A DNA stretch of 64,000 nucleotides from Chloroflexota bacterium (GCA_026707285.1 JAPOXD010000021.1:2559-66558); one strand, 5' to 3'; counted from the first letter of the stretch, positions 10,005-59,149 are shown. Program-made: numbers and translations. Notes: a model not told the origin generated them from the sequence alone.

Positions 10005-10111
10005 GGTGAGGGGGCGGCGACGCCGCGCCCACAGTGGAGTCCTCGACCGATAGAGGTAGGGGCCGGTCGCGACCGGGCCCTATTCATGGGTTGACGGGTT
10101 GAGCGGCCATT

Positions 10112-10148
10112 GGATCCCCGCCTCCGTACGAATGACGGAGGGGATTCG
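10112..10148. repeat. short palindromic intergenic repeat, family B (GGATyCCCGCCTCCG...CGGAGGGGATTCGC), nested hairpin
   Basis: inverted repeats cctccgt/acggagg and ggatcccc/ggggattc; the same family recurs at 15077, 20601, 22364 and 62993. Confidence 0.6.
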
Positions 10149-10260
10149 CAAGAGTCACCAGCGCAGAAACCCGGCATCGAGTCATCCGTAGGGGCAGCCT
10201 GTCTGCACAGATTGAAAGTGCTACTTGCAATGTATGCACTTCACTGATAGCGTACTGTGT

Positions 10261-17975: not shown

Positions 17976-19775
17976 ATGACGGCAGCCACTACCGATCTCT
18001 TTGCCGACGGCTGGCTCAGCAGCCCGCCGCAATACCGCGCGGACCTGGATCGCTGCGAGCCGGCCTCGGCGCTGAGCGCCACGGGCAAGCGCGGACATTG
18101 GCGGACGATGTCGTTCGAGACCGACGACGTGGCGGGCACCATGATCGCGGCGGGGCCGGAGACGGCCGCGCCGGCGGTGAGCTTTCCGCTGCGCGCCAGC
18201 GGCTGGCACGCGGTGTCGGTGGGCATCGTGCCGAACTTCAAGTGCACCGATGACACCGCCACGGTGGCGGTACCGGTCAAGCTCAGCAGCGACGACACCT
18301 ACTCGTTGCTCACGCTGAACCTGTCCTCGCTGCAAACCCGGCTGCTGCCGGATTGGCACGGGCCGGCGGTGGCCGAGATGTTCTGGAAGATTGCCGACCT
18401 CACGGACATGAGCCTCGATATCTGCCAGATGGTCCGGCGGGTGGCGCCGGGGGACGCGCCGGGGTCGTTCAGCGGCCCGGCGGCGCGCGTGGCCTACGTG
18501 AAGCTGGTGCCGCTGACCGACGACGAAATCGAGACCTGGCAGGCGGACCAGGCGCGGACGGATACGCGCCGCCTGTTCGCCCACAACGACTCGCACGGGC
18601 CGCACTACCTGTTCCGCCTCACCACCGAGGAAGAGGTGCGGCGCGAGATCGAGCCCTATCGCGACACCGACGTCTCGCGCATCTACTGGGAGGCCGGCGG
18701 CGGCGACCGCACGCGCTTTTTCAGCCGCGTCGCCCGCGCCGAGGTCATGGAGGGGCAGGAGGATTTCGGGCGGCGCGGCGACCGCATGCACGCCGAAAGC
18801 TGGCGAGACTTCCAGCAGCAGGGCGTGGACCCGTTCGACGTGGCGTTGGCGCACACGCACGCGCTGGGCATGGAATTCCACGCGTGCTATCGCGTGGCGG
18901 GGTTCAAGTACCCGCCGCCGCTGGATGGCGCCAGCCTGGGGGAGGTCTTCTTCGACCGGCATCCCGAATGCCGCGGCGAGGACCGCGCGGGCAACCGCAC
19001 GCCGCGCATGGCCTACAGCTATCCCGCGGTGCGGGAGTTCGTGGTCTCGCTGCTGCGCGAGATCGTGGAGCGGCCCGTGGACGGCGTGTGCCTGCTGTTC
19101 AACCGGCGCATGCCGTTGGTGGAGTACGAGCCGCCGGTGGTGGAGGGGTTCCAGCAGGAATACGGGCTCGACCCGCGCGAGCTTGCGGCGGACGACCCGC
19201 GCTGGCTCGCCTACCGCGCGCGGACGCTGACGGGCTTCATGCGCGAGGTGCGCGCGGCAATGAACGAGGCGGGCGAGGCGCGGGGGTCGCGGATCGACGT
19301 GGGCGCCGTGGTGGCGGCCACCGAGCAGGAGAACCTGCAGGACGGCATCGACCTGCGCGCCTGGATGGACGAGGGACTGATCGACACGCTAATCCCCTAT
19401 AGCTCGGAGCCGGTCTACGACAGCCACCATCCGTCGTGGACGGATCCGTCACAGCTGGCGTTCTTCGTGGACCTGGTGCGCGGCACCGACTGCGTGCTGG
19501 CGCCGAACCTGATGCCGAGGCATCAGTCGCCGGAGGACTTTCGCCGCCGGGCGTCGACCGTCTACGAGGCCGGCGCCGGACACATGTTCTTCTGGGACGC
19601 CGCCGGCGGCTGCGGCCGGGCCAACCACCAGCCCATGTGGAGCGGCCTGAAACGCCTGGGCCACCAGGACGAAATCGCCGCCTGGCAAGCCGCCGGCGAG
19701 CCCGACCTGCCGCGCACCATCAAGCCCCTGCGCAAATGGGACGGCTGGGATTTCGCCTACGAGACGCCGGGGTAG
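17976..19775 (+). CDS. uncharacterised TIM-barrel glycoside-hydrolase-like protein (tandem paralog)
   Basis: tandem duplicate of 16023..17795; a third, more distant paralog lies at 31450..33048. Confidence 0.45.
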   Translation: MTAATTDLFADGWLSSPPQYRADLDRCEPASALSATGKRGHWRTMSFETDDVAGTMIAAGPETAAPAVSFPLRASGWHAVSVGIVPNFKCTDDTATVAVPVKLSSDDTYSLLTLNLSSLQTRLLPDWHGPAVAEMFWKIADLTDMSLDICQMVRRVAPGDAPGSFSGPAARVAYVKLVPLTDDEIETWQADQARTDTRRLFAHNDSHGPHYLFRLTTEEEVRREIEPYRDTDVSRIYWEAGGGDRTRFFSRVARAEVMEGQEDFGRRGDRMHAESWRDFQQQGVDPFDVALAHTHALGMEFHACYRVAGFKYPPPLDGASLGEVFFDRHPECRGEDRAGNRTPRMAYSYPAVREFVVSLLREIVERPVDGVCLLFNRRMPLVEYEPPVVEGFQQEYGLDPRELAADDPRWLAYRARTLTGFMREVRAAMNEAGEARGSRIDVGAVVAATEQENLQDGIDLRAWMDEGLIDTLIPYSSEPVYDSHHPSWTDPSQLAFFVDLVRGTDCVLAPNLMPRHQSPEDFRRRASTVYEAGAGHMFFWDAAGGCGRANHQPMWSGLKRLGHQDEIAAWQAAGEPDLPRTIKPLRKWDGWDFAYETPG

Positions 19776-26618: not shown

Positions 26619-28154
26619 TCACCAGGGGTTGGTGGCGTCCATCTCCCACTTGACGAGGTTCGTGACCCGGACGGGCCGATCCTCGGTGAAGAGCTTGAAT
26701 TGCTTGCTGTCGTCCCTGGTTGGGTAGACCCGCTGGACGATGCAGATCCGCGAATTGACGAACATCTCGATGACGGAGCGGTCGACGAACAGGTCGATGT
26801 CGAGTCGGCCGCCGCCCTCCAGGGTGAAGGGCACGACTTGCCGGCGGACGCCCCTGGAGTACCGCCCGGCGTCATAGCCGTAGGTCAAGCCCTGGTCTTC
26901 GCTGGCCCGCTCGAAGTCGACCACGAACTGCTGCCGCTCGGCGTCGTAGGTCACCACCGTTTCCTCCCGGCCTCCAGGCGAGCACAGCACCTTGAGCCCG
27001 AACCGAGCGGCGTCGTTGGCCTCGATGGTCAGCTCGATCTCCATACAGTCCGACGCGAAGCCCTGGACCGTCCGTTCCTCGCCCTCAGACAGGGTGACGT
27101 CGACATGCCGCCGCTCGTCGCAGCGCAAGGCGCGAAGCTCGGTGACCGGATCGATGCGGAGGCTGTTGTCGGCCGCAGGCGTGAAATGCCAGGGCAGGGT
27201 CATGACGCCGGCCCACCCATGTTTCTCCCATTGGTGCTCCCGCGCGTCCCTGATCCAGCCCCAGAAAATCCTCCGGCCCCGGTCGTCCACCAGCGTCTCG
27301 GGTCCGGCGACCAGGCTGCCCAGATGGCTCAGTTGCCCGTGGATCTCGGGGATGAACTGCTCGTGCGCGTAGCGCCCGATGTAGTACTGGGCCTTGTTGT
27401 AGGGCCAGTGGGTATGCATCAGCAGCATGTGCTTGTCGCCGAACGGAAAGAAGTTGGAGCAGGCGCAGTCCTCGACTTCCGCCGTCCACCGTCGATCGGA
27501 CTTGTAGAAGGGACCGACGTACTCCCACTGCTTGAGGTCCTTGGACTTGAAGAGGCTTGTTGAGTCTCCCTCGTAGCCGGGGCGGTGGTTCTTGTTTCCG
27601 ACGAGGGCGAAGTAGAAATCGCCCTCTTTCCAGCCGCTGGGATCGAAGATCACGCACTCCGCGAATTTGCTGGAGGACTTGGGCGGTGCGCCCTCCCGGG
27701 GCGGGTCCAGGGGTATGACGGGGTTCTCGGCCAGTGGGACCCAGTGATCCAAGTTGTCGTCGTGGCACTGGTAGATGCAGATGCCCCGCGTGGGCATGTT
27801 GGTGATGATGGCGGGCGGGTCCGTGCCCTCCATCACATCGCCGCTGTTGAAGTAGTCGCCCTTGGCGCCCGCCAGGGGCTCACGCAGCGAGGCTTTGTGG
27901 AAGCGCCAGTGGAGCAGGTCTCGGCTGCTGATGTGCTGCCAGCTCGAGAAGTAGATCTGGCCCGGCCCATTGGCGATCTTCTGCAGGTAGCCGAGGTGAT
28001 ATCGGCCCTTCCAGTAGATGGCGCCGTTGATGTCGTTCCAGCGGCCTTCCGGCGGGACGAAGTGGTACCTGGGCCGGAATTTGTCCGCGACCAGCTTCTC
28101 CCGCAGCTCGTAGGACTCCATCAGGTAGTCGTCGAAGTCGCTCATCAGGTACAC
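26619..28154 (-). CDS. glycoside hydrolase family 32-like (beta-fructofuranosidase/levanase-type five-bladed propeller plus beta-sandwich)
   Basis: N-terminal YHFVPPEGRWNDINGAIYWKGRYHLGYL resembles the GH32 YHF.P..WMNDPNG catalytic block; WIRDARE ~ RDP region; no signal peptide. Confidence 0.6.
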   Translation of the reverse strand: MYLMSDFDDYLMESYELREKLVADKFRPRYHFVPPEGRWNDINGAIYWKGRYHLGYLQKIANGPGQIYFSSWQHISSRDLLHWRFHKASLREPLAGAKGDYFNSGDVMEGTDPPAIITNMPTRGICIYQCHDDNLDHWVPLAENPVIPLDPPREGAPPKSSSKFAECVIFDPSGWKEGDFYFALVGNKNHRPGYEGDSTSLFKSKDLKQWEYVGPFYKSDRRWTAEVEDCACSNFFPFGDKHMLLMHTHWPYNKAQYYIGRYAHEQFIPEIHGQLSHLGSLVAGPETLVDDRGRRIFWGWIRDAREHQWEKHGWAGVMTLPWHFTPAADNSLRIDPVTELRALRCDERRHVDVTLSEGEERTVQGFASDCMEIELTIEANDAARFGLKVLCSPGGREETVVTYDAERQQFVVDFERASEDQGLTYGYDAGRYSRGVRRQVVPFTLEGGGRLDIDLFVDRSVIEMFVNSRICIVQRVYPTRDDSKQFKLFTEDRPVRVTNLVKWEMDATNPW

Positions 28155-28339
28155 ACCATGCGATATAGCCGACGAACGCTGCGGCCGGCGTGGTTGGCCG
28201 TTATAGCGCCTCGGCCGGCTGTGCCGACCGGTGGGGCCGCCGGCGCCCGATCACCACCGGCCGCGCCGCGATAGTCCCCGACCCCGGCCGCGCGACGCGC
28301 GGCCGGGGTCGGAAGTGGACCGTGTGCGCTAGACCGGCG

Positions 28340-28846
28340 CTACATCATGTCCATCGACATGTCGCTCATCTTGTTGAGCTCGTCCTCCGAGGTCCCCACG
28401 CCGTAAATCACACCCTCGTCGGTGCCGGCCAGGAACTCGGCCTCGGTGCCGCGACTGATCACGTCAACCGCGATGCGGTGCGACAGACCCATGCCCATGT
28501 CGTCGTCCATGCTCATGTCGTCGTCCATCGACATGTCGTCGTCCATGGACATGTCATCGCCCATCATGGCCATGCCCGCAGCGATTCGAGCTTCGGCCAC
28601 GGCGACGATGCGGTCGTAGTACATGTTGTCGGTCGGGGAGTCCATCATCATCATCGCGTCGAGCTCGGCGTTGTGATCGTGGATCCACTGACCCGCGGCG
28701 TCATCGCCGTAGATCGCGCGGTAGGTCGCCTGCACATCCGCCGACTGGTCTTCGAGCCGCTGGCCATCCTTTGCGGCCGGATGCATATCCGCCAGTGCCG
28801 GCGACAAGGTGGCGAGGACCAATGCACTGACGACGACCAAGAGCAT
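28340..28846 (-). CDS. secreted Met/Asp-rich low-complexity protein (MrpX-like candidate oxidant sink or metal-binding protein)
   Basis: signal peptide MLLVVVSALVLATLSPALA|DM; mature region contains MMMMDSPTDNMYY..MAMMGDDMSMDDDMSMDDDMSMDDDMGMG..KMSDMSMDMM. Confidence 0.55.
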   Translation of the reverse strand: MLLVVVSALVLATLSPALADMHPAAKDGQRLEDQSADVQATYRAIYGDDAAGQWIHDHNAELDAMMMMDSPTDNMYYDRIVAVAEARIAAGMAMMGDDMSMDDDMSMDDDMSMDDDMGMGLSHRIAVDVISRGTEAEFLAGTDEGVIYGVGTSEDELNKMSDMSMDMM

Positions 28847-29221
28847 CAGCGCGCGCCACGGCGCGGGCACGGAACTGGTACGAATCAATGGAGCAAGCCT
28901 TTCTCCGGTTTCATCCGCCACCGTGGCGGGTGAGAAGGGACCATTAGTTTTCTACAGGGTCAAGAGACCGTCAAACCTGACGCGCGGACCGTGCAAAGAC
29001 TTACCGAAATGGGCTCGAATCGCTCGAATACACCATAAAATGACGTGGGGCTGAGAGGTCGCTTGCGGCGGCTGTGCATAAATTCGAAGGGCGGCGCCGT
29101 GCATCGACCCGGCGATGGGAAGCAGGGCAAGTTCTGCCCCGAACATGCGGCGCACTCGGCATCCGAGCCAACCGCATGCACGTATAGGTGGTTGGGAGCG
29201 CTGTGCGCCTAGGAGATACGG

Positions 29222-31369
29222 ATGGCTGACGAGATCGCCCGGCGGCTGGCCCGCACATTGAAGTCGTGGGCGCCCGCCGGCCTGGCGGGGGTCTTGTCCG
29301 GACTGCTGGCCGTGGGCGTGAGCGAGCTCTACGCCGGGATTTTCGGTGGTCTGCCATCGCTGCTCGTCTCCATCAGCGGCCGGATCGTCGACCTGAGTCC
29401 GCGGGCCATGGAAGAGTTCGCGATCAGCGTGTTCGGCACCAGCGACAAGCTGGCGCTCGTCATCTTCCTCGTGGTGCTCACCGCAATCTTCAGCGCCACG
29501 CTCGGCGTCGTGGCCCTGCGGTCTCGACCGGTGGCGGTGGCGGGCTTTGTGGCGTTCGGAGTCCTGGCAGGTCTGGCAAACGCCTTCGACGCCCAGTCAA
29601 CACCGGCCCATACCGCGGCGGCGGCGGCGATTTCGGTGGGGCTGCCGGTGGCGGCGCTCTTGTGGCTCATCCGCCTAATCCGGGAGCCCACGACGGCCAC
29701 GGTAGCGATGTCGGCGAGCCGGATGCGGCGACAGCGACGGCTCTTTCTTGGTACGGCCACGGTGGTTGCAGCGGCCTCGGTCGCGACCGGCATCGTTGGG
29801 CGCAATCTGATCGAGCGCGCCAAGGTCGTCGTGGCCAAGCGCGAGGATGTGGTGCTGCCGCCGGTGAGCGACCGCGCGGCGGTGACGCTGCCGGGGCCGG
29901 CGCCGACGATCACCGTCGCGGAGGCGCTCGCGCCCACGCCAACCCCCGAGCCCACGCCCACCCCCGCACCCGAGCCGACATCGACTCCTACACCCGAGCC
30001 GACACCCACTCCGACGCGGGAGCCCACGCCCACTCCAACGCCCGAACCCACCCCAACCGCCACGCCCGAGCCCACCTCGACGCCCACGCCGACGCCAACC
30101 CCCGAACCGACGCCGACGCCCACACCCGAGCCCACGCCAACTCCTACGCCCGAGCCCACGCCCGCAACCGTGGCCCGCGCGGAGCAGGCAGCCGCGTCGC
30201 AGGCAACCCCGACGCCCACACCCGAGCCGACACCCACTCCGACACCGGAGCCCACGGCCACGCCGACTCCAGAGCCAACGCCAACGCCTACGCCGGAGCC
30301 GACTCCCACCCCCACGCCGGAGCCCACGCCGGAGCCCACGCCCACGCCCACGCCCGAGCCAACCCCGACTCCCACGCCGGAGCCAACCCCGACTCCCACG
30401 CCGGAGCCGACGCCCACACCTACGCCGCCCCCCACGCCCGCGCCAGTTCAGCCGCTGACAACGACGACGGTTCCCGTGGACGGGATGACGCCGCTGGTCA
30501 CGCCGAACAACGACTTCTACCGGATTGACACCGCGTTCTCGATTCCACGCGTCGACGTCAACACCTGGCGGCTCAGCATTGGGGGCCTGGTCGAGCGTCC
30601 GTACAGCATTTCCTTCGACGAGTTGCTAGGGCTCTCGACGTTCGAGGAGTTCATCACGCTGTGCTGCGTCTCCAACCAGGTGGGCGGAAACCTGATCGGC
30701 AATGCCAAGTGGCAGGGCGTGCCGATTTGGCACCTGATCAACCACGCCGGGGTGAAGCCGGAAGCCACCCAGATCGTCGGACGGTCGGTTGACGGCTTCA
30801 CGGTCGGATTTCCGCGCGACGTGGCATTCGATGGACGTCCGGCGCTGGTGGCCGTGGGAATGAATGGCGAAGCGCTGCCGTTCAAGCATGGCTTTCCGGC
30901 GCGTCTCATCGTGTCGGGCCTCTACGGCTACGTCTCGGCCACGAAATGGCTGCAGGAGATCGAGCTCACCACCTGGGAAGGGTTCGACGGCTACTGGATC
31001 CCGCGAGGCTGGTCCAAGCGCGGTCCCGTCAAGCTGCAATCCCGGATCGACGTTCCCAGGCGCTCAGCGACGATAAGCCCCGGCCGGCAACCCATCGCCG
31101 GTGTGGCGTGGGCGCAGAACCGCGGCATCAGCAAGGTGGAGGTGCAGATTGACGGCGGCGACTGGAACGAAGCCAGGCTCGCCCTGCCGATCAGCAAGCA
31201 CACCTGGGTGCAGTGGGTGCACGAGTGGGACGCCACCCCCGGCTCGCACGTTGTCCGGGTGCGCGCCACCGAGGCCAACGGCGAAGTGCAACCCGAGGCT
31301 CCGAGGCCGCCGGCGCCGAACGGCGCCGAGGGCTGGCATCAAATCAGGTTCAACGTCTCCGACTCATAG
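29222..31369 (+). CDS. membrane-anchored molybdopterin-dependent oxidoreductase, sulfite oxidase / MsrP(YedY) family, with long Pro-Thr-Glu linker
   Basis: N-terminal ~5 TM helices; (PTPEPT)n linker; C-terminal Oxidored_molyb pattern ..[14 protein letters not shown]...SFDEL......E...TL.CVSN.VGG...GNA.W.GV......L..AG.... plus Mo-co dimerisation-like tail. Confidence 0.7.
29930..30450 (+). repeat. coding tandem repeat (18-24 nt units encoding PTPEPT / TPTPEPT), low-complexity linker
   Basis: ~25 iterations of cccacgcccgagcccacgcccact-like units; purely Pro/Thr/Glu/Ala translation. Confidence 0.8.
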
Positions 31370-31449: not shown

Positions 31450-33048
31450 CTACGACGGGCCAGGCTGGTCGGCAGACTCCATCCGATAGCTGACGAGCAT
31501 CTCGACACTGGCGAGCGCCAGTTGGCAATCGACCATGGGGTTGCGCCCGATCAACTTCACGCGCAGCCGGTTCCAGCCCTGTCGCGCAAGGGGCGGGGAC
31601 ACGTCGAAGTCGAGCCAGGTGTCGTTGTAGAGCTGGCGCGCGCGGGCCTGGGACGTGTCGAGGCTGTGGCCGTTGAGGTCGAATTGAAGCTCGTCGGGCG
31701 CCGTGAGCTGCTCGATGAGCAGGCGCAAGGTGACCGACTCGAGCGCCCCGTCCTTCGCGGCTGCGTCGAGATCGTCCGCGACGTCGACCGAAACCTCCAC
31801 CTCGTCTCCGGGCTTCTCGAGCGTCGCCGGCAGTGGCCCCTCGCCCCATTCCCGCTGATCCACCAGGTAGTGCTTGTCCTTGCGCGCGATGAGGTCCGGG
31901 TCGGCCATCTCCTTCCAGGGCTGGCGGTCGTAGTCAAGATCGCGGGTGAAGGGGATGAGGTGGTTGTTGAAGAGGTAGATGCCATCGGCGCCGGCCCGCC
32001 AGTGGGCTGCGGCCACGGCTCGGCACATTTCCGTGGAGTAGTAGTTGCGCTCGTTCCACAGCATCGCCGCCGAAAACGATCGGTTCTGGCCGAACAACCC
32101 GAGGTTTTGCGCGATGACCTGCACGCCGGTACCCCGCGCGGCCTCGACATACCCCTCAACGGGAAGCCGGTGCCTGTTGCCCATGGCTTGGCCGACGACG
32201 AGGATATCGAGCAAGCCTTCGGCCAGCCACGCGCGCACGTCGATTCCCGCGGTCATGGCCTGGTCCAGCGAGCCTGGGATCCGGGCGGAGAAATAGACGG
32301 GTCGTCCGACCTGCCGGCGCTTGGCGTCGAGGGCGGCCTTGAGTTCGCGCATCAAATCGGTGAGCAGTACCGCGCCGGCCTGCTCCTCGCCGTCGCGGAA
32401 CAGCCTGGGGTAGCGGCAGAAATCCCAGTCAAGGCCGTCCAGGTCGTAGTTGGCGATGGCCTCCCGGGCCAGGGCCAGCTTGTAGTCCCGCACCTCCGGC
32501 ACGGCGAAGTCGTAGGCCGTCTTGGCCCGCTGTTGAACCCCGGCGTAGGGCCGATCGACCGCGCGCTCGGGAGCATCCTGCCCGAGAAGCCAGTCGGGAT
32601 GGGCGCGTTTCATGGGCGACATCAGCGGATCGTCCAGCCCACCGGGGAGCCTGAGGTCGTGCACGTCGTTGACGCGCATCGAGAGGAACACTTCCAGCCC
32701 GGCTCGGTGACCGTGCTCGATGACGACCGCGGCGGGATCCGCCCCCGCCTCGGTCATTTGCCGGGCGTTCTCGTAGATGCGCCAGTTGGAGGCGGTCGTG
32801 AACGGCGACCCGTCCTGTCCCCAGCGCGGACCCACCGCGGTGTCATGGCTGTAGTGGTCGGACAGGCGATGGGTCGGCGTGCCGAGGTAGGGATCGGTGC
32901 CAAGCTGCCAATAGATGGTGTCGACCTGGGTGCCGCGGAGGGGGTCGATCGCGAGCCGGGCCAGCCCTTCGGCGCCAATCGGCGCCTCCATGGTCGGAGC
33001 GACCAGCGTTCCACCGTCGTTACAAAGGATCAGTCGGTGCGGCTTCAT
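31450..33048 (-). CDS. uncharacterised TIM-barrel glycoside-hydrolase-like protein (distant paralog of 16023 and 17976) with C-terminal beta-rich extension
   Basis: shared blocks DTIYWQLGTDPY (cf. RMYWEAGEGD), EHGHRAGLEVFLSMRVNDVHD (cf. EHCHDAGLEIHASYRVAGF); start at MKPHRLILCNDGG (33048); the ORF upstream to 33678 is probably untranslated. Confidence 0.45.
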   Translation of the reverse strand: MKPHRLILCNDGGTLVAPTMEAPIGAEGLARLAIDPLRGTQVDTIYWQLGTDPYLGTPTHRLSDHYSHDTAVGPRWGQDGSPFTTASNWRIYENARQMTEAGADPAAVVIEHGHRAGLEVFLSMRVNDVHDLRLPGGLDDPLMSPMKRAHPDWLLGQDAPERAVDRPYAGVQQRAKTAYDFAVPEVRDYKLALAREAIANYDLDGLDWDFCRYPRLFRDGEEQAGAVLLTDLMRELKAALDAKRRQVGRPVYFSARIPGSLDQAMTAGIDVRAWLAEGLLDILVVGQAMGNRHRLPVEGYVEAARGTGVQVIAQNLGLFGQNRSFSAAMLWNERNYYSTEMCRAVAAAHWRAGADGIYLFNNHLIPFTRDLDYDRQPWKEMADPDLIARKDKHYLVDQREWGEGPLPATLEKPGDEVEVSVDVADDLDAAAKDGALESVTLRLLIEQLTAPDELQFDLNGHSLDTSQARARQLYNDTWLDFDVSPPLARQGWNRLRVKLIGRNPMVDCQLALASVEMLVSYRMESADQPGPS

Positions 33049-33231
33049 CCCGCCATGCGCTCCGTTTCCGCACGAGCGAAACCCGACGGTCCCGCGCCCA
33101 TAGGGTAAGGGCCGAAACGGAGATTCCGCATCGGGCCTCATTGGGCGGCCACGACCTACTTGCGGCCAGGCTCCCAGACCTCGACTACGCTGCGGACCGT
33201 CTCTCCGCACGCGAACGGCCGGTGAGAGCCC

Positions 33232-33873
33232 ATGAAGTTCGATGTCGTCCAGCACCTCGGTGCGATGGAGCGCTCGGTGTCTTTGCTGGATCGCGATGGA
33301 CTGCCCGCCAGCGCGGTCAGGCTGGCCCGCAGTTACGAGACGACGCTGGAGGACCTGTGGGACGCCACGACGAACGTCGACCGCATTCCGCGTTGGTTCG
33401 CTCCGGTGAGCGGAGAGCTCCGGCTTGGCGGACGCTATCAGGTGGCAGGCAACGCCGGAGGCGAGATCACGGCGTGCGAACGACATTCGCACTACGCGCT
33501 CACGTGGGTGTTTGGCGAGTGGGTGAGCTGGGTGGACGTGCGCGTGGCGGATGAAGGGTCGGGCCGCGCGCGGCTCGCGCTCACGCACACGGCGCATCTG
33601 TCGGAACACTGGGACACTTACGGGCCGGGAGCGGCGGGCGTCGGTTGGGAAATGGGTTTCCTGGGGCTCGCGCTGCATCTCGCGGAGCCCGACTGGCTGA
33701 AGCCCGACGAGATGGAGTTCGCCGCCTCGGCGGATGGCAAGGCGTTCATCGCCGGCAGTAGCGAGGGCTGGCGACGAGCGTCGGTGGCGGCCGGTACGGA
33801 CCCCGAAGCCGCGGCTGCGGCAGCGCGGCAGACGACCGCGTTCTACTCCGGGGAGGAGCCCGAGCCCATGTGA
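33232..33873 (+). CDS. SRPBCC-superfamily protein (AHSA1/START-like)
   Basis: ..SYETTLEDLWDATTNVDRIPRWFAPVSGELRLGGRYQ..GEITACE.HSHYALTW.. pattern of activator-of-Hsp90-ATPase-homolog / polyketide-cyclase-like proteins. Confidence 0.65.
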   Translation: MKFDVVQHLGAMERSVSLLDRDGLPASAVRLARSYETTLEDLWDATTNVDRIPRWFAPVSGELRLGGRYQVAGNAGGEITACERHSHYALTWVFGEWVSWVDVRVADEGSGRARLALTHTAHLSEHWDTYGPGAAGVGWEMGFLGLALHLAEPDWLKPDEMEFAASADGKAFIAGSSEGWRRASVAAGTDPEAAAAAARQTTAFYSGEEPEPM

Positions 33874-34550: not shown

Positions 34551-35627
34551 TTGGCGACCCGACGTAGGCGGATCGAGAACGCTCCCTTGCCCTCCCCATT
34601 TCCCGAGGGCTGGTATTTCATCGCCAGCCGGGCGGACCTAGTCAAGTCCAGACTCATCCAGCGGACGTGGATGGGCGAGAACATTGTCGCCTGGTGTGAC
34701 GCCGACGGGCGCGTCTGCGTCGCCGAGGCCTTTTGCCCGCACCTGGGAGCCGACCTGGGGCCCGAAGCCGGAGGCCGGATCTGCGACGGCCGGCTCGTGT
34801 GTCCGTTCCACGGCTATGAGTTCGACGCCGGCGGCCAGTGCGTCGCCACACCCTATGCCGATCCACCCAAGACCGCGAAACTGCGGGTCTTCGAGACGCA
34901 GGAAGTGATCGGCCTGGTCTTCGCCTGGTGGGGGATCGAGGGACGGGCGCCGCAATGGAGTCTGCCGCCGTACCCGCGGGAGGAGCCCGGCTGGACCAAT
35001 TTCAAGATCAGGACCCTGCGCTTCGCCGGCCACCCCCAGGAGACGACGGAGAACTCCGTGGACCTGGGCCACCTGCGGTACGTCCACGGCTATGACAACG
35101 TCGACCGGGTCGAGCGGTTGTCGGTCGACGGGCCCTGTCTGAAGAGCGACTTCGACTTCAAGCGGGTTCGGACGATTGCCAAGGTCGCCAAGCTGACGTT
35201 CGACATCACCGCCAAAACTCGGATCTTCGGGCTGGGGTATTCGTACGTGAAGATTCGCGAGCACTCCATCGGGATGGATTTACGGTTTTGGGTGCTGTCG
35301 ACGCCGGTCGACGGCACGCTGATCGACATGTCGTTGGTCTCGCAGATGCGGGAGATACGCAGACCGAAGCGCCGGATTGCCGGTCTGGGGTTTCTCCCGG
35401 TGAAGCTTCGCGCGCCCCTGATGAACAGATTCATCGCGGCCATGCAAAACCGGGATGTCTTGCAGGACGTGGTCATCTGGGAGCGCAAGCAGCATCGCTC
35501 CCTGCCCCGCCTGTGTCGTTCGGACGGTGAGATCATGCCGTTTCGAACGTACTGTGCGCAGTTCTATTCCGACTCGCCTGAGGTTACGACTTCACTCCCC
35601 AAGCAATCCGGCGAAACCCTACAATGA
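34551..35627 (+). CDS. Rieske [2Fe-2S] non-heme-iron oxygenase, KshA/SdmA/Neverland-like architecture
   Basis: Rieske motif CPHLGADL..(17 aa)..CPFHGYEF; mononuclear iron motif DLGHLRYVHGYD (D-x2-H-x4-H); ~358 aa single-subunit type. Confidence 0.8.
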   Translation: MATRRRRIENAPLPSPFPEGWYFIASRADLVKSRLIQRTWMGENIVAWCDADGRVCVAEAFCPHLGADLGPEAGGRICDGRLVCPFHGYEFDAGGQCVATPYADPPKTAKLRVFETQEVIGLVFAWWGIEGRAPQWSLPPYPREEPGWTNFKIRTLRFAGHPQETTENSVDLGHLRYVHGYDNVDRVERLSVDGPCLKSDFDFKRVRTIAKVAKLTFDITAKTRIFGLGYSYVKIREHSIGMDLRFWVLSTPVDGTLIDMSLVSQMREIRRPKRRIAGLGFLPVKLRAPLMNRFIAAMQNRDVLQDVVIWERKQHRSLPRLCRSDGEIMPFRTYCAQFYSDSPEVTTSLPKQSGETLQ

Positions 35628-35715
35628 CCGGCCAAATTGGCCCTGACTCCCAGGTACCGAATCGGGACGCCATGCGCAACGCTTCCCGAACCAAATCGAG
35701 ATTGAAGGGCAGGCA

Positions 35716-38208
35716 ATGAATCAGGTACTCGGCAAGCTGAGCTCGCTGGTCACGGCCCGCCCGTGGATCACGCTCCTCGTCCTTCTTCTCGTCACCCTCG
35801 CGCTGGGAGCCGGAGCGGTCGTCCGCGCGCCGCCTCCGACGACCGCCGAGACGCTCCCCGACAACAGTCCCATTTCCGACGCGATGGCCGAGATCAATGA
35901 GCTCTTCGGGGACCACGGCGAGATCAGCGCCGTCACCCTCATTTTCCGCGGAGACGCGCTCACGCCCACCGGGCTCGCCCAGATGGATGCACTGATCAAC
36001 GACATCGTCGGCGACGCGGGGGTGCAGGAGCTCCTGGCTCCGACCAATCCGGTCTTTGCGCCGTCGGGGCTGATCAAGTTCGCGCTCCAGACCGACAGCT
36101 TCGATGCGGTGACACAGGCCCAAATCGATGCCGTCCGCGTACTCCCGGAGATTCAACCGGCCCTGGCGGCAATGACCGGCACCGACACCGACGGCACGCG
36201 GGTCGCGATCGGCAGTATCAGCTTGCTCGACACCGGCGACGAGCGCCTGAAGACCGCCGAGCGAACGATCAATGCACTGTCTAAATCTTCTGAGGGTCCG
36301 CTAAGCGCAAGCAGCGTGTCGTTCATCATCCTCGAGGACGAGTACACAGAGGCCACGGAGACGGGAATGGGTCCCCTCATCGGCGTGGCGTTCATTCTGA
36401 TCGCGTTGCTGCTGGTGCTTTTCATGCGCACGGTGTCCGACATGTTGCTGACGCTGGGCGGACTACTCGTGTCGATCATCTGGATCATTGGCGCCGAAGG
36501 CTGGCTCGGTCCGAATGCGCTGGGGCTCATCGGCCCGCCGAACTCGCTGACCACCATGGTGCCGATCATCGTGATCGGCCTCACGGTGGACTACGCCATT
36601 CAGACCATCTCGCACTACCGCGAGCAACGTCTCGAGGGCGGCGAGGTGCGCGAGGCCATTCGCACGGGACTGCGCATTGTGTCCGTCCCGCTGATGCTGG
36701 CGGCCATCACGACGATCGTCGGAATGTTGGCCAGCCTGTTTTCCCCGATCGGTATCGTGCGTGACTTCGGCGTCGTCGCGGGCCTGGGCATCGCGATGAG
36801 CCTGATCGTCATGCTGACGCTTGTCCCGGCCAGCCGGACGATCATGGACCGGCGACGCGAGAAGAAGGGTACGTTGAAGCCGCCGCGTCCAATCGTGCAC
36901 GCCTTGCCGGGCATCGAGCGACTGGCCGGCCTGCTGGGCCGCAGCGTGACCCGCCGGCCGGCGTACTACATCATCGCCGTGGCCGCGGTCACGATCGGGC
37001 TCGGAATCGCGTCAACCGGGCTGAAGTCTGAATTCAACATCCGCGATGTGCTGCCCCGGGGCGGGGCCGTGCTGGCGGATTTGGACACCCTGGAAGCGGC
37101 CATCGGCGGCACGGCCGAGGTGACCAATGTGCTCATCAAGGCCGAGGCCACCGAGACACGCACCCTGCTGAACATGCAGGACCTGACGACCGCCTTCGCG
37201 GACGAGACCCGGCGCCCGCCGGCGGCCGCAGGGCCGATTCAGACCTCGTTTGAATTGCTGCTGCGCGACTGGACGACCGACAGCGGCGTGCCGGGCGACA
37301 AGTACGACCCCGAGATCGCCGCTCTCTTCCAGGAGGCCTCGGCGGGCCTGCAGCTCGATCCTGAGCTGATGCAGGAAATCCTCGACCGGCTCGAGGCCAT
37401 GGACCCGGCCGTTGGTCGCCTGCTGGTCAACGATCCGCAGGGCGTCGACTCCCTGCTGGTTCAATTTCAGAGCTACGGGGGCGACCCCAACCTGACGACG
37501 GCGCTGCAGCAGGACCTCGAGGACCTGTGGGCCGGCGACGACGAGGACATCACCGCAACATCGGAAAGCATCATCTCGATCACAGTCACGGACTCGATTA
37601 CCGAGCGACAAACCGAGGCGATCGCCACGACGGTCGCGGCGGCCCTCACGGTGCTGGCCGTCTTCTTCTACTTGACGGTGCGGCAGCCGGCGCTGGCGGT
37701 TGTCGCCGTCGGGCCCATCGTGCTCGTGCTGATCTGTGTGCTGGGCACGATGGCGCTGCTGGGAATCCCCTACTCGCTCATCACGTCGATCATCACCGCG
37801 CTATCGATCGGAATCGGCGTGGACTACACCATTCACGTGATCCACCGCTATCGGGAGGAATTCGCGCGTCTGCGCAACCCGGAGGAAGCGGCGGTGCGCA
37901 CGCTGGCGACCACGGGATCGGCGCTGCTGGGATCGGCGATGACCACGGCGCTCGGCCTGGGCGTCCTGGCGGCTTCGCCGCTCCTTGCTTCCCAGCAGTT
38001 CGGTATCACCGCGGCGATCACGATCGCCTACTCGCTCATCGTCAGCATCGTGCTGGTGCCGCCGGCCATGACGGTGTGGGGCGCCTATCAAAACATGCGG
38101 CTGCGCTCGATGGTCGAGCGCGAGTGGGCCGACCTGGACGTGGCTATCGAAGAGGTGTATCGGCGCCACGAGGACGACGAACAGGCTTCGCCGACGACAG
38201 ATTCATGA
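35716..38208 (+). CDS. MMPL/RND-superfamily lipid transporter (HpnN/BstA-like architecture)
   Basis: two blocks of ~6 TM helices each followed by large periplasmic loops; 830 aa; MMPL-type conserved membrane blocks. Confidence 0.8.
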   Translation: MNQVLGKLSSLVTARPWITLLVLLLVTLALGAGAVVRAPPPTTAETLPDNSPISDAMAEINELFGDHGEISAVTLIFRGDALTPTGLAQMDALINDIVGDAGVQELLAPTNPVFAPSGLIKFALQTDSFDAVTQAQIDAVRVLPEIQPALAAMTGTDTDGTRVAIGSISLLDTGDERLKTAERTINALSKSSEGPLSASSVSFIILEDEYTEATETGMGPLIGVAFILIALLLVLFMRTVSDMLLTLGGLLVSIIWIIGAEGWLGPNALGLIGPPNSLTTMVPIIVIGLTVDYAIQTISHYREQRLEGGEVREAIRTGLRIVSVPLMLAAITTIVGMLASLFSPIGIVRDFGVVAGLGIAMSLIVMLTLVPASRTIMDRRREKKGTLKPPRPIVHALPGIERLAGLLGRSVTRRPAYYIIAVAAVTIGLGIASTGLKSEFNIRDVLPRGGAVLADLDTLEAAIGGTAEVTNVLIKAEATETRTLLNMQDLTTAFADETRRPPAAAGPIQTSFELLLRDWTTDSGVPGDKYDPEIAALFQEASAGLQLDPELMQEILDRLEAMDPAVGRLLVNDPQGVDSLLVQFQSYGGDPNLTTALQQDLEDLWAGDDEDITATSESIISITVTDSITERQTEAIATTVAAALTVLAVFFYLTVRQPALAVVAVGPIVLVLICVLGTMALLGIPYSLITSIITALSIGIGVDYTIHVIHRYREEFARLRNPEEAAVRTLATTGSALLGSAMTTALGLGVLAASPLLASQQFGITAAITIAYSLIVSIVLVPPAMTVWGAYQNMRLRSMVEREWADLDVAIEEVYRRHEDDEQASPTTDS

Positions 38209-38226
38209 CAGGCCGGGCGCGCTCGC

Positions 38227-39327
38227 GTGTCCCCAGTCGCCGAGCCGCTGCTTGAACCAGGCGTGCAACTCCCGCTAGCCAAGGAGCTTGGACAGCTCCG
38301 CGACCTCTCCAGGGGGCTGAAAGGCGCGTACCGCGGGGGAGACGCCAACCGTCGGGTGCGGCACTTCAGCGGATGGCTGCGCCGAGCAACGGCGGATGAC
38401 GACGGCGCGAGCGGCTACGACCACGCCAAAACCGTGAAGGAGTACTACGACCTCTGCGGCGAGTTCATGGTGTTCGGCTGGGGCGAATCGCTCCACTTCG
38501 CGCCGCTGGCGCCTCACGAAAGCCTGCAGGACTCCAAGACCAGGCATCAGCGGTTGATGATCGCCAAGCTGGAGCTGCGCGAGGGCATGACGGTGATCGA
38601 CGTGGGCTGCGGCATCGGCGGCCCGCTGCGTCGGGTCATCCGCGAGGCCGGCGTGAGCGTCCTCGGGGTCAACAGCAACGAGATCCAGTTGGAGAAGGCC
38701 AAGTCGCTCGACGCCGACGCGGGGCTCGACCACATGGCCGACTACCTCGCGTGCAGCTTCATGGACATGGAGGCGATCGCGGACGACACGTTCGACCGGG
38801 GCTACGCCATTGAGTCGACGTGCCACGCCCCGGACAAGGCCGGCGCGTTCGCCGAAATTTGCCGCGTGCTAAAGCCCGGCGCGCTCTTCTGGGGACAGGA
38901 AATGTGCCTGACGGACGCGTTCGATCCTTACGACAAGCGACACCGGCACATCGAACAGGAGCTGAAGTACTCCATCGCGCTCAAGGACATCGCGACGATG
39001 GGCCAGGTCAACCGCGACCTCGAATCGGCGGGATTTCAGGTCATCGAGGGCCGGGATTTGGCGGTCGCGGGGAACGGTCCGACCACTCCGTGGTACCAGC
39101 CCATGGTGAATCGGCGCCAAACGCTCGGCAACGCCCTGCACCGGACGCCCATCGGCCGCAAGGCGTTCATGGGGGCGTCGAGGCTGGTCGAGGCGGTGGG
39201 AGTCTTTCCGAAGGGCGCCACCGACGTCGTCGCCCTGATGCATCGCACCGCCAACGCCTATGTCGCCGGCGGCAGGGCCGGGATTTTCACGCCGCTGTAC
39301 TGTTTTCTGGCGCGCAAACCCGGGTAG
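38227..39327 (+). CDS. sterol C-24 methyltransferase (ERG6/SMT family) homolog
   Basis: YYDLCGEFMVFGWGESLHFAP (cf. ERG6 YYNLVTDFYEYGWGSSFHF), SAM motif VIDVGCGIGGP, AIESTCHAPDKAGAFAEICRVLKPGALF (cf. [28 protein letters not shown]), C-terminal IFTPLYCFLARKPG (cf. LFTPMMLFVARKPE); GTG start. Confidence 0.8.
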   Translation: MSPVAEPLLEPGVQLPLAKELGQLRDLSRGLKGAYRGGDANRRVRHFSGWLRRATADDDGASGYDHAKTVKEYYDLCGEFMVFGWGESLHFAPLAPHESLQDSKTRHQRLMIAKLELREGMTVIDVGCGIGGPLRRVIREAGVSVLGVNSNEIQLEKAKSLDADAGLDHMADYLACSFMDMEAIADDTFDRGYAIESTCHAPDKAGAFAEICRVLKPGALFWGQEMCLTDAFDPYDKRHRHIEQELKYSIALKDIATMGQVNRDLESAGFQVIEGRDLAVAGNGPTTPWYQPMVNRRQTLGNALHRTPIGRKAFMGASRLVEAVGVFPKGATDVVALMHRTANAYVAGGRAGIFTPLYCFLARKPG

Positions 39328-39360
39328 GCTCGCCGCGTCACTCGGGCGAGGCTCGGCGCC

Positions 39361-41385
39361 TTAAGCGGTCAGTTCGCGTCGCTGCTTGGCAATGCGGAAC
39401 TTCAGCTTCTTGCTCGGTTTGCTCGACGGCAGCGGGCTAAACCCGAGCTCGAAGTTCGGCGGCGACACCTCGATATCGAAGTGGCGCGCGATCATCAGCA
39501 CGTTGGCCGCCAGTTGCAGTTCCACCCACCCCGTCCCGAGGCACCGGTGCGTGCCCAGCCCATACGGGGCGTAACCAGGACCGCGATGCTCATTGCGCGG
39601 CGGCTGGTAGCGGTCGATGTCAAATTTGAAGGGTTCGGGAAACACGCTTTCCGTGTAGTGCGTGGCCGTCTGGGCAATGTGAAGCCGGGACCCGACGGGC
39701 AGCTCGTAGCCTTCGACCACGCACGAATTCATCACGTTCCGAATGGACATCGGGACGATCGGGTAGACCCGCAGGCACTCCATGAGAAAGCGATGGGTGA
39801 CGTCGATCTCTCGTGGCCTGAATGCCTCTCCACTTGGGTCGCCGTTGGCGAACAACGCATCGGCTTCGTCGCGGATCTTCGCGTAGATCTCCGGCTTCGA
39901 CGCCATGGCATACAACACGAAGCTGAACATGTCGCCAAGGTAGACGCTCGCGATCAGCGCGGCTGACAGCGCGAAGGGCAGATTCGACTCCGGGACGAAC
40001 TGCGGATCGGTCGCGTGCAGGCCGAGAAGGTCGTCCGCAAGATCGCGCGGACATCCAGCCCGCTGCGCGGGCGTGTGGCCAATCCGCACCCGGTTCAGCA
40101 GTGTGTCCAAAGACCTCATCCGGCGTTTCATGCCTGGGGTCCGCAGCATGAACTTGGGCAGCACCTTTGCGACGTGAACGCTGAGCGCCCGTTCCTTGAA
40201 CCGCGCCAAATCCGCAAAGACATCCTGGGAATCAACGCTGATAAGGAGCGGCGAAAGCTGCGCGTTGATCATTCGCCGGCACATCTCCGTTGCCTGGTAA
40301 GTTTCCCCAACCTCCCAGTCCGCCATATAGCCCCGTGCATGCCGGTACACCTGGTCTAGCTGTCCCGCGAGCCTGCCGCGGGAATACCCCGGGCCCAACG
40401 ACTTGCGAAGCCGAAAGTGATCGGCGCCATCCAGGGACGGCAATACGCCCGAGGCGCCATAGACCTTCTCGAAGTCCGCAAAATAGTCCCTCGTCCGCAG
40501 GTACCTGCGCCCGCTCCGATGGACCCAGCGGTTCACCTCGAGGCCGCCAACGAAGATCATTGGTTCCACAAGAGGCGGACGGATCATGAACACCGGCCCG
40601 TACTCTTCGGTGAGCTGCGCGAATAGGGCGGGAAAGTTCCCGTTGCGAACGTGCCGATTCAGCAGCAGCCGCCACAGCGGGACGGTCGGAATCTTCTTGG
40701 ACAGGGCGGAATGCTGGAGCAGCGGTGCGGCAAGGCTCTGTGACACGGCATCGGCGATCGACCGGCCGATCAAGTCCATATTGCAGATGAAGTGAATGCG
40801 CTCCTCATCCTGTTCTTCAAGCTGGAAGATGAAGCGAAACACATCACAGGTATTGACCAGGCAGATGATGATCACGTCTCGCGGATCGGGAATTTCGTTG
40901 TTGAAGATCGCCTTGCCGATGCGGGTCTTCACAAACTGCGCCGCGGATCGCTCTGGGGAGCTTTCGAACATATCCCCCTGCCGCGCGGCCCGGGCAAGCG
41001 TCCAGAACCCGCCCTCGTGATGATCCAGAATCCCCATGTCAACCAAGCGATCCAGCGTGAGATCGATGATCGATTCGGCGCGGGGCGCCAGCCGTTCGAT
41101 CCAATACTGGGCGTTATGCCGGCCCGGCTCGCTCGCAATCTCCTCGAGGATGGGGTCCAGCGTCGGGTCGCCCGTTTCCGCCGCATCGACGAGAAACAGC
41201 GACTCGATATCCGTGTCGATGCGCGACATGAGCGAGAGCTCGGCGAGCGCCGCGCCGACGACGGCGCAGTTCAGACGCCATCCTGGAACCTGGTGAAAGT
41301 AGCCGCTCTCCTCATTGAGGAGCATCAGGAGAAGCTCTTCGGAAAGGCTTAACTGACGGGTCGACGTACTGTCTGCGACGGCCAT
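39361..41385 (-). CDS. fusion protein: N-terminal GOLPH3/GPP34-family domain plus C-terminal cytochrome P450
   Basis: N-terminus LSLSEELLLMLLNEESGYF...GAALAELSLMSRID matches the GPP34 signature; C-terminus carries EXXR and the heme-thiolate loop FDIDRYQPP...YAPYGLGTHRCLGTGWV; ATG at 41385 with aagga RBS, although the ORF opens with TTG at 41451. Confidence 0.7.
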   Translation of the reverse strand: MAVADSTSTRQLSLSEELLLMLLNEESGYFHQVPGWRLNCAVVGAALAELSLMSRIDTDIESLFLVDAAETGDPTLDPILEEIASEPGRHNAQYWIERLAPRAESIIDLTLDRLVDMGILDHHEGGFWTLARAARQGDMFESSPERSAAQFVKTRIGKAIFNNEIPDPRDVIIICLVNTCDVFRFIFQLEEQDEERIHFICNMDLIGRSIADAVSQSLAAPLLQHSALSKKIPTVPLWRLLLNRHVRNGNFPALFAQLTEEYGPVFMIRPPLVEPMIFVGGLEVNRWVHRSGRRYLRTRDYFADFEKVYGASGVLPSLDGADHFRLRKSLGPGYSRGRLAGQLDQVYRHARGYMADWEVGETYQATEMCRRMINAQLSPLLISVDSQDVFADLARFKERALSVHVAKVLPKFMLRTPGMKRRMRSLDTLLNRVRIGHTPAQRAGCPRDLADDLLGLHATDPQFVPESNLPFALSAALIASVYLGDMFSFVLYAMASKPEIYAKIRDEADALFANGDPSGEAFRPREIDVTHRFLMECLRVYPIVPMSIRNVMNSCVVEGYELPVGSRLHIAQTATHYTESVFPEPFKFDIDRYQPPRNEHRGPGYAPYGLGTHRCLGTGWVELQLAANVLMIARHFDIEVSPPNFELGFSPLPSSKPSKKLKFRIAKQRRELTA

Positions 41386-41593
41386 CCGACTTAGTCCTTG
41401 TGCTTGCCCTAAGCTCGCAAGGGCCTGTCGTCCCTGTATCGCATTATACAACCGCGACTGCCCAGCGGCAACGAGATATCAAAAGACGAATCAACGATAA
41501 AGCAGGATTAGTATTTCGACATATCTTCGGGAGTCACTTCAACAAAACTCATACACTCAAGCGACTCATATTCAGTCGACCGACGTTCGAGTA

Positions 41594-55826: not shown

Positions 55827-55902
55827 GGGCCGATAGCTCAGTCGGAAGAGCGCCGCACTCGCATTGCGGAGGTCGTGGGTTCGAGTCCCATTCGGTCCAC
55901 CA
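55827..55902 (+). tRNA. tRNA-Ala (anticodon CGC)
   Basis: GGGCCGATAGCTCAGTCGGAAGAGCGCCGCACTCGCATTGCGGAGGTCGTGGGTTCGAGTCCCATTCGGTCCACCA; G3:U70 identity pair; CCA encoded. Confidence 0.85.
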
Positions 55903-56037
55903 AGTGATGTCGTTTGTAGGCGCCAGAATCCATTCCGACGACCTTACGCGTATGCTTCTAAGGCGTGCACACATTGCGCTCGCTAGGCTGGGCCGCTCGC
56001 GTGTGCTACATTCCCGTACCACAGATACGGTCAGGAA

Positions 56038-59120: not shown

Positions 59121-59149
59121 AGGTGTTCGGAGTGCAGTAGGGACCAACG

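Follow-up and report, generated by a model that had tools for sequence, protein, structure and literature searches.

We asked whether two divergent genes of a Chloroflexota bacterium act together, one coding for a putative secreted protein rich in methionine (Met) and aspartate (Asp) and the other for a membrane-tethered molybdenum (Mo) enzyme of the sulfite oxidase family, and what reaction the enzyme might catalyse. The genes lie in a stretch of 64,000 nucleotides (nt) (GCA_026707285.1, JAPOXD010000021.1:2559-66558), analysed at its full length and called here the window. A preliminary description of this sequence had read them as an oxidant-scavenging pair like the Met-rich MrpX of Azospira suillum and the methionine sulfoxide (MetSO) reductase MsrP. 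As described there, two open reading frames (ORFs) diverge from a spacer of 300 base pairs (bp), one of 193 amino acids (aa) at 28340-28921 on the minus strand and one of 715 aa at 29222-31369 on the plus strand. The codon-position guanine-cytosine (GC) content of both follows the pattern of real genes (0.63/0.40/0.84 for the Met-rich gene, in a genome of 66% GC). The comparisons below support a functional pairing of the Met-rich secreted protein with the Mo enzyme, and they indicate that the enzyme is neither an MsrP nor a sulfite dehydrogenase.

Conservation of the pair in Chloroflexota

Ten loci (the window, L001-L006 and L008-L010), which all belong to a single narrow clade of Chloroflexota, contained a gene homologous to that of the Met-rich protein, and in 10 of 10 it was divergent from the gene of a ~700-aa Mo enzyme. 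The pair stood in three flanking contexts: between GHL10 and glycoside hydrolase family 32 (GH32) genes, between rseP and ispG, and between a GHL10 gene and a 234-aa gene followed by a substrate-binding-protein gene. It was restricted to enzymes of at least 82% identity, and no homologue of the Met-rich protein was found among 160 more distant loci of the enzyme family. In L090-L092 a 137-aa DUF1761 membrane protein (4242-4724) was encoded divergently from the Mo gene, occupying the place of the Met-rich gene. Some long-read assemblies (L004 3267-5791, L006 38-1681, P0003, P0014) have the Mo gene split at its Pro/Thr linker and the Met/Asp repeat out of frame (TWIRTWT..., MTWAWT...); both are probably assembly frameshifts in repeats and not biology.

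Met-rich partners of distant family members

Met-rich secreted ORFs were also sought around 163 distant family loci, in ~1.3 megabases (Mb) of flanking sequence. In six of these loci the immediate neighbour of the Mo gene, in the same orientation, encoded a small lipoprotein made of Met-plus-acidic repeats (Table 1), and no such ORF was present elsewhere in the ~1.3 Mb. The six lipoproteins are not homologous to the Met-rich protein of the window, and their loci are Actinomycetota-type. The partners found thus far are of no fewer than two non-homologous types, and the genes stand in two orders. An OmpR-type response regulator and a histidine kinase adjoined the Mo gene in all six, against a background of ~13-16 of 144 loci. 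When these two-component systems were typed with NCBIfam models they gave generic OmpR/PhoB-family matches, which speak neither for nor against a metal or oxidant sensor. In a rough neighbour-joining tree four of the six enzymes clustered near Chloroflexota clades, and those of L033 and L160 were placed elsewhere. A further "Met-rich" ORF, in L041, was discarded as an antisense reading of a repeat.

FAS1 fasciclin lipoproteins were the second recurrent immediate neighbour of the Mo gene, in Streptomyces, Rhodococcus and metagenomic Actinomycetota (L117, L129, L149, and plasmids of Streptomyces and Rhodococcus). Two of three N-terminal linkers of these proteins (Rhodococcus and L129) had several Met, and the Streptomyces linker had one.

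The preliminary description had suggested the functional pairing from the window. Adjacency in 10 of 10 loci now supports it, together with the six distant loci, in which a Met-repeat protein and a two-component system recall the layouts of uropathogenic Escherichia coli (UPEC), of hprRS-msrPQ and of the Azospira YedYZ-MrpX cluster. For the three-part layout, experiments in UPEC (PMC8550376) and in Azospira (PMC4436054) establish a tie to oxidative stress.

Sequence and predicted structure of the Met-rich protein

The dominance of Met and Asp and the MMMMD and repeat motifs noted earlier were borne out. The predicted mature form of 149 aa had 22 Met (14.8%), 27 Asp (18.1%), 29% charged residues and no Cys, whereas Met made up 2.3 +/- 1.0% on average in 34 other ORFs of the window and nowhere more than 5.5%. 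Met was clustered at three sites: MMMMD, a repeat of 29 residues, and the tail KMSDMSMDMM. The repeat reads GDDMSM-DDDMSM-DDDMSM-DDDMGM, with 11 Met and 11 Asp (38% each), and its DNA repeats an 18-nt unit 4.2 times, the copies matching at 87% (28489-28564, Tandem Repeats Finder). Secretion, as also proposed, agrees with a predicted Sec-type signal peptide that is conserved in the homologues, whose cleavage between ALA and DMH was placed by eye with the AxA rule and not computed.

The 26 close homologues came nearly all from Chloroflexota metagenome assemblies. Conserved in their alignment were an N-terminal module (DGQRLEDQS..VQ..Y..YG..A..W..HN), an invariant YY-R-VAVA-AR and a segment RIA.DVI.RGTE..FLAGTD.GV.YG; Met-rich composition was retained in every orthologue although the length of the repeat varied strongly. 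In every member with an intact amino terminus the third residue behind the predicted cleavage site was His, with positions 1-2 variable, and His3 was also found in relatives at 37-44% identity (variants DMH, GMH, DSH, DGH, QGH, SGH, RGH and TGH). If the predicted cleavage is right, this pattern would fit an amino-terminal Cu(II)- and Ni(II)-binding (ATCUN) site.

The AlphaFold2 (AF2) model from the deeper alignment had a helical core with a predicted local distance difference test (pLDDT) score of 73-87 and disordered Met-rich segments with pLDDT <50. Overall pLDDT rose from 57 for an alignment of 27 sequences to 66 for one of 46; the models are usable just for the helical core and the disordered segments. 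Structure comparison found no fold relative, and the protein had no match in Pfam or NCBIfam. A b562-like haem carrier replacing SorB was considered for this protein and dropped, because there was no structural match and the N-terminal module was found on unrelated surface proteins.

A profile search over 1.8 billion representatives gave 204 relatives. The module of ~45 residues (DGQxLxDQ..VQ..Y..YG..A..W..HN) is without a Pfam family and stands directly after the signal peptide in many secreted, mostly Chloroflexota, proteins (P0147, P0156, P0158, P0159, P0167 and P0281 among them). It heads He_PIG Ig-like proteins of 450-520 aa, one substrate-binding-like protein and one that contains a dockerin, and it is repeated in P0159, with four stretches matched by the search and five by eye. 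The module may serve in surface anchoring or in metal binding.

Architecture and family of the Mo enzyme

Hydropathy gave five transmembrane (TM) segments, followed by a linker of ~190 aa, of which 76 are Pro, 61 Thr and 20 Glu (the linkers of relatives have ~80 or ~20 residues), a Mo domain and a C-terminal Ig-like domain. The sole His in residues 1-200, H130, is unconserved, and the TM region (residues 1-215) of 12 diverse relatives had no conserved His, Cys or Met column and so no MsrQ-type haem ligands. In these respects the anchor and linker are as the preliminary description had drawn them. Its assignment to the sulfite oxidase family also stood, by the match of residues 440-592 to Pfam Oxidored_molyb (E 3.9e-39), and its further assignment to MsrP did not, as set out below. 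The match to Pfam Mo-co_dimer was sub-threshold (16.4 bits versus a cut-off of 22.7); relatives carry PF03404.

The twin-arginine motif RRxF is internal, directly before TM5, and not N-terminal; R172, R173, F175, G193 and R194 were invariant in the 12 relatives and R199 was 90% conserved. The last TM helix and the C-terminal Mo domain are predicted to be exported by twin-arginine translocation (Tat), the domain holding the molybdenum cofactor (Moco) only. This motif and the TTG start of the Met-rich gene (see below) are additions to the preliminary description.

The family has at least 8000 members: E was <1e-10 for every one of the 8000 candidates that were scored. In Actinomycetota and Chloroflexota, the identity of full-length relatives reaches ~50%. 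Members occur in Streptomyces, Rhodococcus and Mycobacteroides, annotated as "sulfite oxidase" or "molybdopterin-dependent oxidoreductase". Mycobacterium tuberculosis Rv0218, with a similar domain layout, is a candidate member. No function for membrane-anchored sulfite-oxidase-family proteins of Actinomycetota or Chloroflexota turned up in the literature searched.

Enzyme class

Scores against the curated NCBIfam models were 123.8 bits for SorA (cut-off 600), 118.1 for SoxC (cut-off 420) and 79.8 for SorT (cut-off 570). The MsrP model NF003767 gave 37.1 bits against a cut-off of 207, aligning only residues 541-584. The best solved relative was SorA (2blf, 1e-28), aligned over the Mo and Ig-like domains for ~270 residues, and YedY (1xdq) gave just 25 bits (7e-5).

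Compared with SorA, the Cys ligand is kept (C482) and the motif C-x-[SG]-N is common to both. In the sulfite site of SorA, the SRGFVEPR segment with R109 is deleted, H57 is replaced by T or D and Y236 by an invariant Trp; with a one-residue shift, the place of SorA R55 may be taken by R254, a residue that is K or Q in two relatives. Profile comparison gave 33% identity over 149 columns with E. coli MsrP and 29% over 147 columns with UPEC C3567, with FY-x and C-V in common. The MsrP motif NNFYEF aligned with NDFYRI, in which Y253 is invariant, and RCVEAWS with CCVSNQV. The Asn and Tyr of NNFYEF are presumably the YedY active-site residues N45 and Y47.

The Mo domain can thus be placed, on sequence grounds, as a distinct branch of mixed features, since the curated cut-offs were missed, the sulfite residues of SorA are gone and the FY and Cys motifs of MsrP are partly kept. 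An MsrP-like enzyme, as first supposed, does not agree with 37 bits against 207, the SorA-like two-domain build and the absence of haem ligands. As for a bona fide sulfite dehydrogenase, which would have spoken against the pairing with MrpX-type chemistry, SorA and SoxC are indeed the closest relatives, but all cut-offs were missed and the sulfite residues are gone.

Proposed function and alternative explanations

We propose, at somewhat less than an even chance, that the pair is a lineage-specific form of a recurring surface module of Chloroflexota and Actinomycetota, consisting of a Met sink and a Mo enzyme that recycles it. The acidic secreted protein would display regularly spaced Met on disordered segments at the cell surface. 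Oxidants such as hypochlorous acid (HOCl), chloramines or peroxides would meet these exposed thioethers first, and other envelope proteins would be spared. The methionine sulfoxides so formed would be turned back into methionine by the tethered Mo enzyme, as in the model of MrpX with MsrP. Electrons might come from quinol oxidised directly at the TM domain, with the Mo domain docking on the conserved extracytoplasmic loop, or the enzyme might instead transfer the oxygen atom to a second, accepting substrate. The gene linkage and its recurrence, the export signals and the build of the two proteins are observed, and the sulfoxide reductase activity, its direction, the inducing stress and the electron source are inferred. 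Short linkers go with a lipoprotein partner, and the linker of 190 residues with a secreted partner that has a surface-protein module; such covariation of anchoring and tether would fit two proteins that must meet. The wider proposal is rather doubtful, namely that the whole family is a surface MetSO repair enzyme of Actinomycetota and Chloroflexota, paired with polyanionic Met-rich proteins as a renewable oxidant sink and working without a haem partner, either through quinol at the TM domain or by oxygen-atom transfer of the MetSO-to-sulfite type.

Several observations weigh against a sink and its recycler. Every score ranks SorA and SoxC above MsrP as relatives of the enzyme, which also has an extra C-terminal domain. 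No CxxCH protein is encoded within 5 kilobases (kb) of the pair (all ORFs between 23.2 and 35.6 kb), and neither a cytochrome gene nor an MsrQ-like partner is near it in the window or in the related Chloroflexota loci; with no haem, no cytochrome and a tether of 190 residues, the electron supply of a reductase is left unexplained. No regulator gene adjoins the pair in the window. In the next-closest clade of enzymes (Chloroflexota, L090-L092; ~72% identity, 600 aa) a DUF1761 protein takes the place of the Met-rich protein, and most family loci have no Met-rich neighbour. P0193, a Met/Asp-rich relative ending in (MMDDD)8, lies among transposase genes with no Mo enzyme neighbour. Finally, the number of independent origins is uncertain because four of the six distant enzymes cluster, and possibly few events are involved.

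Some of these points would be expected if the two proteins were not coupled at all, the Met-rich protein being a member of the Chloroflexota surface-module family that stands beside the Mo gene by chance in a narrow clade, with slippage-prone Met/Asp inserts. The relatives in which the module heads He_PIG, substrate-binding-like or dockerin proteins are not beside Mo enzymes, P0193 shows such a repeat among transposase genes, the pair does not extend below 82% enzyme identity, and repeat length is highly variable. Yet the pair is intact while both flanks change and every orthologue stays Met-rich despite the changes in length; moreover, unrelated Met-plus-acidic lipoproteins occur only directly beside distant family members, for which chance synteny in a single clade cannot account. 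We consider the absence of coupling quite unlikely. A similarly low probability is given to the Met-rich protein as a buffer of copper or silver outside the cytoplasm. It would bind Cu(II) at the XXH terminus and Cu(I) on Asp-flanked MxM and MxxxM motifs, and the Mo enzyme would be unrelated or would keep the Met reduced. Copper transporters and Met-rich copper proteins have "Mets" motifs to which the MSM/MDM repeats are similar, an XXH amino terminus occurs in the human Ctr1 ectodomain, His3 is kept while positions 1-2 vary, and the partner in L030 has EHMM repeats. The E. coli enzyme offers a precedent, as MsrP is copper-induced and repairs CusF (PMC9302797). Against such a buffer, no copper ATPase, multicopper oxidase, CsoR or CopY gene was near any locus examined, and the adjoining two-component systems fall outside the heavy-metal subfamily (its models TIGR01387 and TIGR01386 scored well under cut-off and under MtrA-/BaeS-type models). 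Most actinobacterial partners are without His, and the ATCUN reading depends on a cleavage site judged by eye.

More improbable still is a SorA- or plant-sulfite-oxidase-style oxidase or dehydrogenase of a small extracellular substrate, passing electrons to O2 or a diffusible acceptor, with the Met-rich protein as a peroxide shield or an accessory or anchor. The best matches are sulfite dehydrogenases over both domains, the missing redox partner would suit an O2-linked enzyme, the long linker sets the domain far from the membrane, and Streptomyces homologues are annotated "sulfite oxidase". Nevertheless, the sulfite-binding R109, H57 and Y236 of SorA are absent, the sulfite dehydrogenase cut-offs were all missed, three- to seven-fold, and an oxidase leaves unexplained why a two-component system and a Met-repeat lipoprotein accompany the gene as in known Msr clusters.

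Membrane-anchored sulfite-oxidase-family proteins number in the thousands, and their recurring neighbours (Met-plus-acidic repeat proteins, two-component systems and fasciclin lipoproteins) offer a concrete and cheap functional hypothesis, extracytoplasmic Met redox cycling in bacteria without MsrPQ. If true, it would extend the "sacrificial methionine" idea of MrpX beyond Proteobacteria, would mean that a SorA-like fold can serve as a sulfoxide reductase, and would raise the question of how a Moco-only enzyme on a long tether gets re-reduced. Should it fail, the Met-rich proteins would still be candidate surface copper buffers.

Gene calls, intergenic region and flanking genes

The Met-rich gene probably starts at TTG 28888 (MIRTSS...) instead of GTG 28921, because GGAGAAAGG, a putative Shine-Dalgarno sequence, precedes this codon and the start agrees with those of the homologues. 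An ORF of 247 aa opposite the Met-rich gene (28190-28933, plus strand) was rejected as a shadow ORF, and the long overlapping ORFs 29266-30528 (plus) and 29329-30435 (minus) as repeat shadows in the other strand or frame.

The leader of the Met-rich gene contains the palindrome CCGCCAnnnTGGCGG; in an alignment of nine intergenic regions its substitutions in four loci keep pairing (G-U) on the minus, or mRNA, strand only. The form CCGCCACCGTGGCGG has two exact copies in the window, at 28915-28929 and at 18256-18270, the latter within a GHL10 ORF, and a looser match at 61063; its strand matches in the window are five at three sites versus 0.13 expected. The inverted repeat upstream of the Mo gene was kept across the nine aligned intergenic regions, occurs once in the window, and is a candidate promoter or operator of the Mo gene. 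The consensus fold of the ~180-200-nt leader of the Mo gene from eight loci was -18.7 kcal/mol with a covariation penalty, which does not support a structured RNA. Pattern scans for sigma-70 promoters and terminators made no call. The hairpin at 28276-28314, which is without a T-run and was therefore missed by the terminator scan, is probably the transcript end of the Met-rich gene. An Rfam scan of 28100-29400 (E up to 10) gave only chance microRNA-type matches on this hairpin and no Moco riboswitch.

Table 1 Features of the gene pair in the window and of neighbours of distant family members
Feature	Position	Strand	Basis or remark
GC-rich perfect hairpin between 3' end of Met-rich gene and GH32 gene	28276-28314		seen as hairpin in Rfam-scan alignments
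Met/Asp-rich secreted protein gene	28340-28888	-	ORF, coding-type GC at third codon position, 26 homologues; mechanical ORF extends to GTG 28921
Met-rich C-terminal tail KMSDMSMDMM	28343-28372	-	kept Met-rich in homologues; disordered in model
Met/Asp repeat MAMMGDDMSM(DDDMSM)2DDDMGMG	28487-28573	-	predicted disordered; length differs among orthologues
XXH amino terminus, then module DGQxLxDQS..VQ..Y..YG..A..W..HN	28670-28789	-	(near-)invariant columns; AF2 pLDDT 73-87
Predicted Sec-type signal peptide (MIRTSSVPAPWR, hydrophobic core, ALA)	28790-28888	-	read from sequence; conserved in homologue alignment
Palindrome CCGCCAnnnTGGCGG in leader of Met-rich gene	28915-28929		kept in 9 loci
Inverted repeat around -10-like TAGAAT upstream of Mo gene	29031-29045	+	consensus CGCCATAGAATGGCG; window version CACCATAAAATGACG
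Membrane-tethered sulfite-oxidase-family molybdoenzyme gene, 715 aa	29222-31369	+	
TM helices 1-4 and conserved extracytoplasmic loop (PSL..D..P..AI..FG..DK)	29264-29686	+	hydropathy; invariant columns
Twin-arginine motif RRLF, then weakly hydrophobic TM5	29735-29803	+	basic residues at 194-207 after
Pro/Thr/Glu-rich linker, ~190 residues	29891-30454	+	tandem repeats 29945-30444
Molybdopterin-binding domain	30539-30997	+	Pfam PF00174, E 3.9e-39
Predicted Mo-ligand Cys482 within TLCCVSN	30665-30667	+	aligns with SorA C104 and the Cys of MsrP RCVEAWS
C-terminal Ig-like domain, equivalent of the SorA/sulfite oxidase dimerisation domain	31037-31300	+	SorA alignment to chain residue 351
L030, repeat TTEHMMTE x4	downstream of Mo gene		
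L033, repeat DDEMS...	downstream of Mo gene		cut by contig end
L130, repeat DDDMSEDEEMT x4	downstream of Mo gene		
L133, repeat DDMSDGSMVEDG xN	downstream of Mo gene		
L135, repeat EEMDESE xN	downstream of Mo gene		
L160, repeat MTED x14	42 nt upstream of Mo gene		own Shine-Dalgarno
Fasciclin lipoprotein neighbour, L176	5020-5664		
Fasciclin lipoprotein neighbour, L177	2444-3100		

The pair lies in a stretch dense in glycoside hydrolases (GH; window 11452-33678), with GH116 at 11452-14070, GH32 at 26619-28154 and three GHL10-like paralogues at 16023-17795, 17976-19775 and 31450-33678. On the contig of the closest relative, L001, a large serine recombinase and then a BrxC/BrxD-like gene lie beyond GH32 and a 226-aa gene (9689-11287), which may be a mobile or defence island; the corresponding position of the window is without recombinase or Brx genes and has a tRNA-Lys at 25204. 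Downstream, at 34551-42961, is a sterol-type cluster with a Rieske/KshA_C oxygenase, an MMPL transporter with a sterol-sensing domain, a Sterol_MT_C sterol methyltransferase, a fusion of GPP34 with cytochrome P450 and an FAD amine-oxidase-like protein. Bacterial sterol methylation in probable sponge-symbiont Chloroflexota may interest work on sterol biomarkers. Two tRNA-Ala(CGC) genes 2 kb apart (55827-59794) flank and precede a stretch of low GC (0.57-0.58 versus ~0.67) that may be an integrated element.

Comparison with known systems

MrpX of A. suillum has 20% Met, 44% charged residues and a signal peptide, and is oxidised by chlorite or hypochlorite; its re-reduction is ascribed to YedY1, and SigF/NrsF controls the system (PMC4436054). 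The window resembles the SigF/NrsF-YedY1Z1-MrpX system in having a Met- and charged-residue-rich protein with a signal peptide beside a Tat-exported Mo enzyme of the sulfite oxidase family with a membrane component, and in relatives a dedicated regulator is encoded alongside. It differs in that the enzyme is SorA-like, with two domains and a haem-less five-TM anchor, whereas Azospira has YedY and a separate haem-b YedZ; the genes are divergent and not in an operon, there is no sigma/anti-sigma pair, and the partner is larger, with a folded core. The likeness to MrpX could not be upheld as homology: the alignment of Met-rich homologues against C3568, the UPEC homologue standing in for MrpX, gave an hhalign probability of 0.3%. 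The actinobacterial lipoproteins fit the MrpX-type composition better than the window protein does.

In UPEC CFT073 (PMC8550376), H2O2 leads OrhK/OrhR to activate the genes of a cytochrome b (c3566), a Mo enzyme (c3567) and a Met-rich peptide (c3568). C3568 in the retrieved UPEC locus consists of a signal peptide and then periodic Met amid charged residues, and in the locus of E. coli K-12 hprSR is divergent from hiuH-msrPQ. A kinase and regulator divergent from an operon with a Mo enzyme and a periodic-Met secreted protein are common to these loci and to members of our family, with the exact layout in L030 and L160. By gene order and predicted products, the actinobacterial clusters reproduce the three-part UPEC layout with a different enzyme architecture. 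The window is unlike UPEC in having no adjoining two-component system, and the family in having no cytochrome b subunit; its Met-rich partners are acidic (D/E) and, in Actinomycetota, lipoproteins, whereas C3568 is Lys-rich and soluble.

SorA/SorB, SorT and SoxCD provide the best sequence matches and share the Mo and Ig-like dimerisation-type domains and the Cys ligand motif, but the family has no cytochrome c partner, and its N-terminal anchor and linker are without counterpart. Polytopic proteins inserted by both Sec and Tat, including a five-TM MoCo class (Streptomyces coelicolor Sco3746), are described in Actinobacteria and Chloroflexi (PMC5449189). By its published description, this class is alike in its five TM segments, the twin-arginine motif before a weakly hydrophobic TM5, the basic residues after it and the C-terminal MoCo domain. 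It is unlike in the conserved His residues of TM2-4, which are predicted to bind two b haems as in a fusion of MsrQ with MsrP (PMC5449189); the window family has no such His. The Met-rich copper segments of Ctr1, CusF, PcoE/SilE and CopA/CueO also have MxM and MxxxM clusters in disordered extracytoplasmic segments; in contrast, the window has no copper gene context, and its repeats are nearly His-free and far higher in Asp. Of the systems compared, MrpX with MsrPQ and a two-component system would come closest to the pair in function, although the enzyme is built differently and the partners are not homologous.

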